From assembly GCF_030013595.1 (NCBI RefSeq), contig NZ_CP122768.1: a stretch of DNA of 64,000 nt, one strand, 5' to 3'. Under the pieces are notes generated by a model. That model did not search any database, had not been told where the DNA came from, and saw nothing but the letters and a program-made list of their open reading frames with translations. Shown piece after piece: positions 12,560 to 61,939 of this stretch; within the stretch, counting starts at the first letter, position 1, and every line of letters begins with the position of its first letter. The stretch comes from Escherichia coli. GTDB taxonomy: Bacteria > Pseudomonadota > Gammaproteobacteria > Enterobacterales > Enterobacteriaceae. The position numbers and the translations under genes were made by a program.

Positions 12560-13197
12560 GCGTCCAACTCCTTCACCCAGTTGGTCACGGTAGTGCGGAT
12601 TGCATCCATCACGGCCTCCAGCGGCTGGGTGGCATCAATGGTATGAATGCTTTTATCTTGTGCTGCCAGTTCCAGATAGCGGGCGCGGGTGCGATTAAAG
12701 AAATCGAAAGACTCTTGCTCAATACGATCCAGCTCGCCGCGCGCACGCGCGCGTTTTAAGCCAACCTCCGGGGTAACATCGAGATAGAGCGTTAAGTCGG
12801 GGCGAAAATCCCCGAGAACAGCATCACGCAGTGTTGCCAGCATATGTTGGTCAATACCACGTCCTCCACCCTGATAGGCTTGAGTGGAGAGATCGTGGCG
12901 ATCGCCAATCACCCAGGTGCCGTTAGCCAGCGCAGGTTTGATGACCGTTTCTACCAGTTGAACGCGCGCGGCATAAAACATCAGAACTTCGGCTTTATCG
13001 GTAATGACTTCATCGCCTACCGATTTGATATCCAGCACCAGGCTTCTTAACTTTTCGGCAAGTTGCGTACCGCCAGGTTCCCGAGTGAAAACCATGTCGC
13101 GGATACCCAGTTGCTCGAGCGTCTCAACCACCACGTTACGCGCGGTAGTTTTGCCTGCGCCTTCCAGCCCCTCAATGACGATATACTTACTGCGCAT
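12556..13197 (-). CDS. tmk: Thymidylate kinase
   Basis: ORF 12556..13197 (-), 213 aa; P-loop [11 protein letters not shown]; 4-nt overlap with holB start. Confidence 0.95.
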
Positions 13198-45599: not shown

Positions 45600-45673
45600 C
45601 GTGCAAAGGAAAACGTTTCCGCTTATCCTTTGTGTCCGGCAAAAACATCCCTTCAGCCGGAGCATAGAGATTA

Positions 45674-46720
45674 ATGACTGCACCATCCCAGGTATTAAAG
45701 ATCCGCCGCCCAGACGACTGGCACCTTCACCTCCGCGATGGCGACATGTTAAAAACTGTCGTGCCGTATACCAGCGAAATTTATGGACGGGCTATCGTAA
45801 TGCCCAATCTGGCTCCGCCCGTGACCACCGTTGAGGCTGCCGTGGCGTATCGCCAGCGTATTCTTGACGCCGTACCTGCCGGGCACGATTTCACCCCGCT
45901 GATGACCTGTTATTTGACAGATTCACTAGACCCTAATGAGCTTGAGCGTGGATTTAACGAAGGCGTGTTCACCGCTGCAAAACTTTACCCGGCAAACGCA
46001 ACTACTAACTCCAGTCACGGCGTGACGTCAGTTGACGCAATCATGCCGGTACTTGAGCGCATGGAAAAAATCGGTATGCCGTTACTGGTGCATGGTGAAG
46101 TGACACATGCAGATATCGACATTTTTGATCGTGAAGCGCGCTTTATTGAAAGCGTGATGGAACCGCTGCGCCAGCGCCTGACTGCGCTGAAAGTCGTTTT
46201 TGAGCACATCACCACCAAAGATGCTGCCGACTATGTCCGTAACGGAAATGAACGGCTGGCTGCCACCATCACTCCGCAGCATCTGATGTTTAACCGCAAC
46301 CATATGCTGGTTGGTGGCGTGCGTCCACATCTGTATTGTCTACCCATCCTCAAACGCAATATTCACCAACAGGCATTGCGTGAACTGGTCGCCAGCGGTT
46401 TTAATCGCGTATTCCTCGGTACGGATTCTGCGCCGCATGCACGTCATCGCAAAGAGAGCAGCTGCGGCTGCGCGGGCTGCTTCAACGCCCCAACCGCGCT
46501 GGGCAGTTACGCTACCGTCTTTGAAGAGATGAATGCTCTGCAGCACTTTGAAGCATTCTGTTCTGTAAACGGCCCGCAGTTCTACGGGTTGCCGGTCAAC
46601 GACACATTCATCGAACTGGTACGTGAAGAGCAACAGGTTGCTGAAAGCATCGCACTGACTGATGACACCCTGGTGCCATTCCTCGCTGGGGAAACGGTAC
46701 GCTGGTCCGTTAAACAATAA
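45674..46720 (+). CDS. pyrC: Dihydroorotase
   Basis: ORF 45674..46720 (+), 348 aa; metal-binding HxH motif (DWHLHLRD). Confidence 0.95.
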
Positions 46721-46756
46721 AAATCGTAGCTTCCTGTTGTCATTAGGTTATTTTAC

Positions 46757-46772
46757 CTGTATAAATAACCAG
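46757..46772 (+). promoter_or_regulatory. LexA (SOS) box upstream of dinI
   Basis: CTGTATAAATAACCAG matches CTG-N10-CAG with the TATA-rich core, about 22 nt upstream of the dinI start. Confidence 0.75.
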
Positions 46773-46793
46773 TATATTCAACAGGGGGCTATT

Positions 46794-47039
46794 ATGCGAA
46801 TTGAAGTCACCATAGCGAAAACTTCTCCATTGCCAGCTGGGGCTATTGACGCCCTGGCTGGCGAACTTTCCCGCCGTATTCAGTATGCGTTTCCTGATAA
46901 TGAAGGCCACGTATCGGTACGTTATGCCGCAGCGAATAATTTATCGGTTATTGGCGCGACAAAAGAAGATAAACAGCGCATTAGCGAAATTCTCCAGGAA
47001 ACGTGGGAAAGCGCCGATGACTGGTTTGTCAGCGAATAA
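46794..47039 (+). CDS. dinI: DNA damage-inducible protein I
   Basis: ORF 46662..47039 (+); start trimmed to MRIEVTIAKTSPLPAGAIDAL... (81 aa) downstream of the LexA box. Confidence 0.93.
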   Translation: MRIEVTIAKTSPLPAGAIDALAGELSRRIQYAFPDNEGHVSVRYAAANNLSVIGATKEDKQRISEILQETWESADDWFVSE

Positions 47040-47060: not shown

Positions 47061-47086
47061 GCCGGGTCGCCCCGGCTTTTTTATTT
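47061..47086 (+). terminator. dinI intrinsic terminator
   Basis: gccggg-tcgc-cccggc hairpin followed by TTTTTTATTTT. Confidence 0.7.
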
Positions 47087-47328
47087 TACTTACAAATTTC
47101 GAGTACAAAATTTCTACACTTCCTCAAAATAACTGCACAATATGCTAAAAAAATATGAATGACATGCTGTTTTATTGTTCATATAAATCTTAAAAGCAAA
47201 AATTTATCTGTTCCCCCCTTTAAAAATTCGGTGAATACCCTTACTTATTGGTATACTGAAGTTGCTTCAGATAAAAACGCATTGAACCTCGAATAACGTT
47301 GTCTAGTAACACGAATTAGGGGGCCATG

Positions 47329-47583
47329 ATGGAAAAAAATAATGAAGTCATTCAGACTCATCCGCTCGTAGGGTGGGACATCAGCACCGTTGATAGCTAT
47401 GATGCGCTGATGTTGCGTTTGCACTACCAGACCCCAAATAAGTCCGAGCAGGAAGGGACTGAAGTTGGTCAGACGCTCTGGTTAACCACTGATGTTGCCA
47501 GACAATTTATTTCGATATTAGAAGCAGGAATCGCCAAAATTGAATCCGGTGATTTCCCGGTAAACGAGTATCGGCGTCATTAA
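47329..47583 (+). CDS. bssS: Biofilm regulator BssS
   Basis: ORF 47326..47583 (+); MEKNNEVIQTHPLVGWDISTVDSYDA... (84 aa). Confidence 0.9.
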   Translation: MEKNNEVIQTHPLVGWDISTVDSYDALMLRLHYQTPNKSEQEGTEVGQTLWLTTDVARQFISILEAGIAKIESGDFPVNEYRRH

Positions 47584-47697: not shown

Positions 47698-48816
47698 ATG
47701 AAATACGATCTCATCATTATTGGCAGCGGTTCCGTAGGCGCTGCCGCCGGGTATTATGCAACCCGCGCCGGTTTAAACGTGCTTATGACCGACGCCCATA
47801 TGCCACCGCATCAACACGGCAGCCACCACGGCGATACGCGATTAATTCGCCATGCTTATGGTGAAGGCGAAAAGTATGTCCCACTGGTTCTCCGCGCGCA
47901 AACGCTGTGGGATGAACTCTCCCGCCACAACGAAGAAGATCCCATTTTTGTACGCTCTGGCGTCATTAACCTTGGCCCGGCTGATTCCACATTTCTCGCC
48001 AACGTCGCCCACAGCGCCAAACAATGGCAACTCAACGTTGAAAAGCTCGATGCGCAAGGGATTATGGCCCGCTGGCCAGAAATACGCGTCCCGGACAACT
48101 ACATCGGCTTATTTGAGACTGATTCCGGTTTTTTGCGCAGCGAACTGGCGATTAAAACCTGGATCCAACTGGCGAAGGAAGCGGGCTGTGCGCAGCTGTT
48201 CAACTGCCCGGTCACCGCAATTCGTCATGACGATGATGGCGTAACTATTGAAACGGCTGACGGTTATTATCAGGCGAAAAAAGCGATTGTCTGCGCGGGA
48301 ACATGGGTAAAAGACCTGCTCCCGGAGCTGCCTGTCCAGCCCATACGCAAAGTATTTGCCTGGTATCAGGCCGATGGTCGCTATAGCGTGAAGAATAAAT
48401 TCCCGGCGTTTACCGGTGAACTGCCCAATGGCGATCAATATTATGGTTTTCCGGCAGAAAACGACGCGTTGAAGATTGGCAAACATAACGGAGGCCAGGT
48501 TATCCATTCAGCGGATGAACGTGTTCCGTTTGCGGAAGTGGTCAGCGATGGTTCGGAAGCCTTCCCGTTCTTGCACAATGTATTGCCGGGTATCGGTTGC
48601 TGCCTGTACGGCGCTGCCTGCACCTATGATAATTCGCCTGACGAAGATTTTATTATCGATACCCTACCCGGCCACGATAATACACTGCTCATTACCGGCC
48701 TGAGTGGGCACGGTTTTAAATTTGCGTCAGTTTTAGGGGAAATAGCTGCCGATTTTGCGCAAGACAAAAAAAGCGATTTTGATTTGACGCCATTCAGGCT
48801 TTCCCGCTTCCAATAA
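47698..48816 (+). CDS. solA: N-methyl-L-tryptophan oxidase
   Basis: ORF 47698..48816 (+), 372 aa; FAD-binding GSGSVG motif ([21 protein letters not shown]). Confidence 0.95.
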
Positions 48817-56204: not shown

Positions 56205-56310
56205 TTTTGCCAGATGTGGCGTGAACGCCTTATCCGACCTACAAAATCTTGCAAAATCAACACATTGCAGGAGCGATGTAGGCCTGATAAGCGTAGTGCA
56301 TCAGGCAACT
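56205..56310. repeat. BIME (REP cluster) downstream of opgH
   Basis: gatgtggcgtgaacgccttatccgacctac and gtaggcctgataagcgtagtgcatcaggc REP units. Confidence 0.7.
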
Positions 56311-60499: not shown

Positions 60500-60781
60500 T
60501 CAGCACGCTGGCTCATGGATTAAGCACCTGATTGCAACCGTTTTCACTTTCCGTGCTTCTCCTAAAGACAGAAGCATCGACTTCGTGTAGGGTTTGCCAG
60601 CAAATTTATTTATCAACCGTCTTACAGACGCTTCCATTCTGGTTAGTGGTAGCGATGATGCTATGCATTAAAACCTTGAAGCCTGCGCCTGGCGCGGTCA
60701 GGTCGGTGTCGCTATGGCAACAAGCCTAAAGGCATAACCCGACAGGGATAAGACGAAAAATCCGAGATTAGTTAACCATAT

Positions 60782-61939
60782 ATGAATCCAGTACCCGCGC
60801 AACGTGAATATTTCCTCGACTCCATCCGCGCCTGGCTGATGTTGTTAGGGATCCCTTTTCATATTTCTTTAATCTATTCGAGCCATACATGGCATGTGAA
60901 TAGCGCCGAACCGTCATTGTGGCTGACCCTTTTTAATGACTTCATCCACTCGTTCCGCATGCAGGTATTTTTCGTTATATCCGGGTACTTTTCCTACATG
61001 CTTTTTTTACGCTATCCCTTGAAAAAATGGTGGAAAGTACGTGTCGAACGTGTAGGTATCCCGATGTTAACAGCCATCCCCCTACTGACATTACCGCAAT
61101 TTATTATGCTGCAATACGTCAAAGGGAAAGCGGAAAGTTGGCCTGGCCTGTCATTGTATGACAAATATAATACGTTGGCCTGGGAATTAATATCACACCT
61201 GTGGTTTTTACTGGTGTTAGTAGTCATGACGACGCTGTGCGTATGGATATTTAAACGCATCAGAAATAATTTAGAAAATTCTGATAAAACGAATAAAAAA
61301 TTCTCGATGGTAAAACTATCGGTGATTTTTTTGTGCCTCGGCATCGGCTATGCGGTAATAAGAAGAACGATTTTTATTGTGTATCCGCCCATTCTGAGTA
61401 ACGGCATGTTCAATTTTATTGTCATGCAAACGCTATTTTATTTGCCGTTCTTTATCCTCGGCGCACTGGCTTTCATTTTCCCTCACCTTAAAGCCTTGTT
61501 TACCACGCCGTCTCGTGGCTGTACCCTTGCAGCAGCATTGGCGTTTGTCGCTTATTTACTCAACCAGCGCTATGGCAGTGGCGATGCCTGGATGTACGAA
61601 ACCGAGTCGGTGATCACCATGGTCCTCGGTCTGTGGATGGTAAATGTGGTCTTCTCCTTTGGCCACCGTTTGCTTAACTTCCAGTCAGCGCGGGTGACTT
61701 ATTTTGTTAACGCATCGCTGTTTATCTATCTGGTTCACCACCCGTTAACGCTGTTTTTCGGCGCATACATTACACCGCACATCACCTCCAACTGGCTTGG
61801 TTTTCTCTGTGGCCTGATATTCGTAGTAGGGATTGCGATAATTCTGTATGAAATTCATTTACGCATCCCGTTACTGAAGTTTTTGTTCTCTGGTAAACCG
61901 GTTGTTAAGCGTGAGAACGATAAAGCACCAGCCCGTTAA
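60782..61939 (+). CDS. opgC: Osmoregulated periplasmic glucan succinyltransferase OpgC (MdoC)
   Basis: ORF 60782..61939 (+), 385 aa; acyltransferase-3 family membrane protein; divergent from opgGH. Confidence 0.93.

Follow-up and report, generated by a model that had tools for sequence, protein, structure and literature searches.

The LexA operator of the chromosomal dinI gene in Escherichia coli: sequence, score, promoter context and conservation of a well-known SOS box

In a stretch of 64,000 nt of Escherichia coli DNA (hereafter the window, meaning the whole stretch that was analysed), the 16-mer CTGTATAAATAACCAG stands shortly before a small open reading frame. Is this 16-mer the LexA operator of dinI? 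With a LexA site here, dinI, the gene of a RecA filament modulator, is controlled directly by the SOS response; few SOS promoters are induced as strongly as PdinI. A preliminary description had taken the sequence for a canonical and strong SOS box, about 22 nt before the start of dinI, and had concluded that the gene is under tight SOS control. We assign the 20-bp segment that contains the 16-mer to the LexA operator of chromosomal E. coli dinI with a probability of about 97%. The assignment is based on its sequence, position, score, uniqueness in the window and conservation, all determined here, and on LexA binding and LexA-dependent induction taken from published papers. The dinI LexA box is real, strongly conserved and already well known; it leaves current understanding unchanged and matters only as correct annotation.

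The window belongs to the E. coli chromosome, and its gene order around the box, pyrC-dinI-bssS-solA, is the one found in E. coli K-12 (Table 1). The reading frame downstream of the box matched the DinI family of Pfam (PF06183, E=2e-29, 102.1 bits for a cut-off of 24.2). It also matched the NCBIfam equivalog NF007893, "DNA damage-inducible protein I", over residues 1-81 of 81 (178.2 bits for a cut-off of 111, E=3e-53). Together with the RefSeq annotation, these matches establish that the downstream gene is dinI, as had been proposed. A 125-aa open reading frame (46662-47039) was also listed and was rejected: it is merely an in-frame upstream extension of dinI across the intergenic region, and the profile match fits residues 1-81 of the 81-aa form. 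The position of the Shine-Dalgarno sequence coincides with a G-rich block (consensus GgGGg) that is conserved in the box-anchored consensus of the 107 related loci described below. At the other end of the gene, the hairpin of the intrinsic terminator was retained in the minimum-energy RNA fold, and there are only 21 nt between the dinI stop codon and this terminator stem. Four Rfam matches scored above the gathering score in the window (Table 1), and all of them are expected in this region of E. coli.

Table 1. Features of the dinI locus and Rfam matches in the window. Positions are counted from the first nucleotide of the window. The -35 and -10 hexamers are putative.
Feature	Position	Strand	Remarks
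SraB sRNA	21564-21732	-	Rfam match above gathering score
rne 5' UTR element	23593-23929	+	Rfam match above gathering score
PyrC leader	45624-45673	+	Rfam match above gathering score; directly before pyrC
PyrC (dihydroorotase)	45674-46720		dinI neighbour
Putative -35 hexamer	46737-46742	+	TTGTCA; read from sequence; 5/6 match to TTGACA
LexA operator (SOS box)	46755-46774	.	20-mer ACCTGTATAAATAACCAGTA
16-mer core of the operator	46757-46772	.	CTGTATAAATAACCAG
Putative -10 hexamer	46760-46765	+	TATAAA; read from sequence; inside the LexA box; 17 nt after TTGTCA
Shine-Dalgarno sequence	46783-46788	+	AGGGGG; read from sequence; 5 nt before ATG
dinI CDS	46794-47039	+	81 aa plus stop; ORF listing, profile matches, RefSeq annotation
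dinI intrinsic terminator	47061-47086	+	stem-loop GCCGGGTCGCCCCGGC then TTTTTTATTT; 6 G-C pairs and T run (terminator scan)
BssS	47326-47583		dinI neighbour
SolA	47698-48816		dinI neighbour
ES036 (CssrF) sRNA	56243-56285	+	Rfam match above gathering score

The 16-mer shows the frame of a LexA operator, with the inverted half-sites CTG and CAG exactly 10 bp apart. It occurs once in the 64-kb window and in none of 100 shuffled sequences. Its coordinates and sequence had been given correctly, and the distance of about 22 nt to the dinI start corresponds to a gap of 21 nt (46773-46793) between the operator and the ATG. The qualification "canonical" held for the CTG-N10-CAG frame and did not hold for the rest of the box, since the 16-mer carries 3 mismatches to the perfect palindrome CTGTATATATATACAG and the flanks are AC...TA, not TA...TA, the 5' flank being AC rather than TA. 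The window has 26 copies of the bare CTG-N10-CAG pattern and dinucleotide shuffles have 13.7, none of 100 shuffles reaching 26. The other 25 copies are G+C-rich and none is LexA-like by the score described below; the excess is probably an effect of codon usage, CTG and CAG being favoured codons. With 26 copies in the window, the bare pattern alone is not diagnostic.

The heterology index (HI) was calculated by the Berg-von Hippel approach from 17 other E. coli LexA boxes, dinI being left out of the 18 boxes printed in Table 4 of PMC3009722. Under this leave-one-out scheme, the HI of the dinI 20-mer is 4.95 (printed matrix) or 6.81 (symmetrised matrix), and the site ranks 6th to 9th of the 18 E. 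coli boxes. When both strands of the 64 kb were scanned, it was the best site by a wide margin, the runner-up having an HI of 10.87 (13.71 symmetrised). The best site across 40 dinucleotide-preserving shuffles of the whole window had an HI of 9.09 (8.52 symmetrised). In the work of Lewis in 1994 and of Fernandez de Henestrosa in 2000, LexA binding sites are said to fall below an HI of about 12-15. Other low-HI sites of the window, for example 60774-60793 (HI 10.87) and 13018-13037 (HI 11.18), are no better than the best sites of the shuffled sequences and were treated as chance occurrences. Heterology index scoring had been named as the check on the first reading of this box; the values of 4.95 and 6.81 are low and agree with the published HI of 4.8 for dinI (PMC11228462 Table 1). 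The site itself has also been published: Table 4 of PMC3009722 gives the 25-mer TTACCTGTATAAATAACCAGTATAT, identical to the sequence found here, for the LexA motif of dinI, and PMC2585105 lists the 16-mer as the LexA site of this gene.

Experimental data on binding and induction are available from the literature. According to the legend of Fig 3D of PMC5999292, purified LexA shifts the dinI operator in an electrophoretic mobility shift assay (EMSA), and the same article gives Kd values of LexA across E. coli operators of 8-170 nM. The gene is induced 49-fold by AZT, and the dependence on cleavable LexA, as judged with lexA3, is 39-fold (PMC11228462); it also belongs to the genes with the strongest UV induction (PMC3009722). 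The tight SOS control that had been proposed from the sequence fits the AZT figures.

Conservation was evaluated within E. coli and beyond. In the promoter region and over the initial 31 nt of the dinI gene, the window shows no difference from K-12 MG1655. A region of 551 bp around dinI, annotated with dinI and pyrC, is present in 5,425 of 5,426 complete E. coli genomes (RefSeq), and over these 551 bp the identity of the top full-length matches in other strains is 99.8%. Of 5,424 E. coli genomes, 4,562 have the 71-bp segment that runs from the -35 hexamer to the ATG with 100% identity, and 852 more show 1-3 differences in it. Two variants were inspected, and the frame is intact in both: C46756A gives AACTG, which is nearer to the consensus, and T46773C gives the flank CAGCA, which the lexA, ruvA and cho boxes also have.

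The same survey of E. coli genomes gave some further observations. Five matches of the dinI region lie on plasmid-labelled records, and 10 genomes have a copy that is only 80-90% identical over the 551 bp. In strain MLI108K1 (NZ_CP116994.1), the ISL3-family element ISKox3 is inserted inside the dinI LexA box (L002:1137-2533, matching window positions 46761-46768), with a transposase CDS at 1252-2472 of L002 and an 8-bp target duplication, ATAAATAA. The insertion splits CTGT from CCAG and parts dinI from its -35 and -10 hexamers. This was the only disrupted box among the matches inspected, and it is the lowest-ranked row in the spread listing of 5,424 genomes.

For the comparison across Enterobacterales, related loci were gathered with a degenerate pattern based on the C-terminal DinI peptide WESADDWF, in a part of the gene well away from the box. 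As the selection was made through a coding-sequence pattern, the box played no part in it and circularity was avoided. The pattern gave 122 matches, of which 110 passed a heuristic DinI motif filter and 107 had enough upstream DNA; the 12 matches excluded by the filter include clear non-DinI sequences, such as three in an Epulopiscium contig. All 107 dinI-family loci of other Enterobacterales have a box with an HI of 8.5 or lower (median 3.67). The CAG half-site is kept in 107/107 and CTG in 105/107, and the central 10 bases vary. From the end of the box to the first in-frame start codon after it, the distance is 19-24 nt in 81 of the 107 loci; the smaller gaps in most of the remaining ones are likely artefacts of the start-codon rule. 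These 107 loci constitute a cross-species footprint that can serve as a clean positive control for LexA-box scoring. In addition, an upstream box with an HI of 1.0-6.5 was found for 6/6 sampled phage homologues of dinI, whose proteins are 33-50% identical to DinI.

In 87 of the 107 loci pyrC lies directly upstream, which identifies these genes as orthologues. The genera represented include Yersinia, Serratia, Pantoea, Erwinia, Pectobacterium, Dickeya, Edwardsiella, Hafnia and Rahnella. A further 18 loci with at least 800 nt of upstream DNA do not adjoin pyrC and have equally good boxes; these paralogues are probably carried on prophages. The linkage with pyrC raises the question of whether LexA bound at this box, besides repressing the dinI promoter, would mainly act as a roadblock that stops read-through transcripts of pyrC. 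Such transcripts may enter dinI or may halt at bound LexA: the terminator scan gave no terminator-like site between the pyrC stop (46720) and the box (46721-46754). The box starts 34 nt after pyrC, and the pyrC-dinI linkage in the 87 loci is tight, with gaps mostly of 27-57 nt. The proposal is nevertheless purely inferential. Moreover, the same box is present in the 18 paralogues away from pyrC and in the phage copies, which shows that the box is independent of pyrC and makes a roadblock role unnecessary. We consider it very unlikely that this would be the main function of the site, and retain the assignment to an operator that acts on the dinI promoter.

The promoter on which this operator would act can be read around and within the box. 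From the sequence and its conservation we infer a -35 hexamer, TTGTCA, and a -10 hexamer, TATAAA (Table 1). Among the 107 dinI-family loci of other species, 79 have a TTG at the same distance from the box; at the place of the -10 hexamer, 64 have TATAAA and 18 more have TATATA (82/107). An automated promoter scan called no promoter on the + strand at dinI. The scan accepts a -10 hexamer only if it ends in T, and the one here ends in A; the -35/-10 assignment consequently rests on the reading of the sequence plus conservation. The two minus-strand hits of the scan were disregarded, being at chance level (2 found for 1.7 expected). The dinI transcription start of K. pneumoniae, mapped by dRNA-seq, falls within the LexA box (PMC10907235), and the E. 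coli start site is expected at about 46772, on the downstream edge of the box. With the likely -10 hexamer inside the box, bound LexA should occlude RNA polymerase.

This arrangement could also mean that the conservation comes solely from the place of the box in the dinI promoter, at the -10 hexamer and the start site, and not from LexA binding. Some of it must indeed serve the promoter, as TATAAA lies in the box at the right distance from the -35-like TTGTCA. However, the most invariant positions are the outer CTG and CAG, and CAG, kept in every one of the 107 loci, is downstream of the -10 hexamer, where it plays no part in the promoter. More variation is found in the -10-like centre (TATAAA, TATATA, TACAAA, TAAATA). 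Invariant half-sites, 10 bp apart, around a varying centre point to a dimeric repressor; they are the signature of such a protein and not of a -10 element alone. In addition, P2-like phages keep the box despite a different promoter context, and LexA binding has been published by EMSA (PMC5999292) and by ChIP (PMC10907235). Conservation through the promoter alone is therefore extremely unlikely. As for a chance CTG-N10-CAG match in AT-rich intergenic DNA, devoid of any regulatory role, its probability is negligible: the bare pattern is common and CTGTATATATATACAG with up to 3 mismatches was found in 13/100 shuffles, but the HI is far below those of all other sites of the window and of all shuffles, 107/107 independently gathered dinI-family loci have a box at a similar place, and LexA binding and lexA-dependent induction are published (PMC5999292, PMC11228462).

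The LexA operator being the preferred reading, against which no observation spoke, its strength could be compared with that of its relatives. The Escherichia dinI box (ACCTG...CCAGTA, HI 6.81) is weaker than 99 of the 107 dinI-family boxes of other species and would fall in their weakest tenth. Most relatives have AACTG or TACTG and ACAGTA, and the box of E. albertii has the same sequence as that of E. coli. The word "strong" in the preliminary description is thus to be qualified: by its rank among the 18 E. coli boxes the site is mid-to-strong, and most dinI-family boxes elsewhere are stronger. The weaker Escherichia box could be an adaptive detuning, by which dinI would fire earlier or at a lower dose of damage than in its relatives, with a LexA roadblock in addition insulating dinI from pyrC read-through; we regard this combined interpretation, drawn from the sequences, as unlikely.

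The following sequence of events would account for the control of dinI by this operator. A LexA dimer binds the 20-bp segment through the half-sites CTGT and CCAG (CTGG on the other strand). Bound there, it would cover the -10 hexamer and the start site and would keep RNA polymerase off TTGTCA-17 nt-TATAAA, an occlusion that the position of the box suggests. Once DNA is damaged, RecA filaments set off the self-cleavage of LexA, which vacates the operator. A monocistronic dinI mRNA of about 310 nt would then be made, from about 46772 to the terminator. DinI in turn binds to RecA filaments and modulates them, an activity that has been described (PMC6590174).

The closest known system is the dinI SOS box of E. 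coli K-12 (b1061). The promoter region, the start of dinI and the neighbours pyrC, bssS and solA are the same, and the operator shows no differences; the K-12 record is in the opposite orientation to the window, and the operator corresponds to a K-12 coordinate of about 1,121,517. Salmonella enterica has dinI boxes on the chromosome and on the Gifsy-1, -2 and -3 prophages (PMC8072944). These are likewise single strong boxes about 19 bp before the ATG, with HI values of 3.9-5.3 and strong damage induction; the Salmonella dinI box listed at 19 bp from the ATG has an HI of 4.0, with a 22.8-fold induction by nalidixic acid. For the chromosomal Salmonella gene a second, very weak box is also listed (HI 17.6; PMC8072944), whereas no second site scoring below HI 13 was found near dinI in the window.

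In Klebsiella pneumoniae dinIR (PMC10907235), as proposed here for E. coli, the box overlaps the start site of dinI transcription. The mRNA is monocistronic, of about 350 nt, and LexA ChIP occupancy at the dinI promoter falls after mitomycin C. The 3' UTR of the Klebsiella gene has an extra stretch, specific to Klebsiella, which is the ftsZ-targeting part of the sRNA DinR (PMC10907235). Given the short distance between the dinI stop codon and the terminator stem in the window, this ftsZ-pairing stretch is absent here.

The dinI-family genes of lambdoid phages resemble E. coli dinI in having strong CTG-N10-CAG boxes close to the gene. In three phage homologues with the box just upstream, two of them annotated in lambdoid-type records, 15-21 nt lie between the box and the start codon; the phage proteins themselves differ, with the low identities given above. 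In three P2-like phages (Klebsiella ST512-KPC3phi13.6, Salmonella SW9 and Erwinia EtG; L008:133-152, L009:175-194 and L010:153-172), the box is placed unlike that of E. coli dinI, 210-250 nt upstream of the DinI-like gene and before a small ORF or an N-terminal extension. In the EtG record, the DinI-like protein carries the annotation "inhibits CI DNA binding", a role different from that of chromosomal DinI, and this suggests that the EtG protein is an SOS-controlled antirepressor rather than a RecA modulator.
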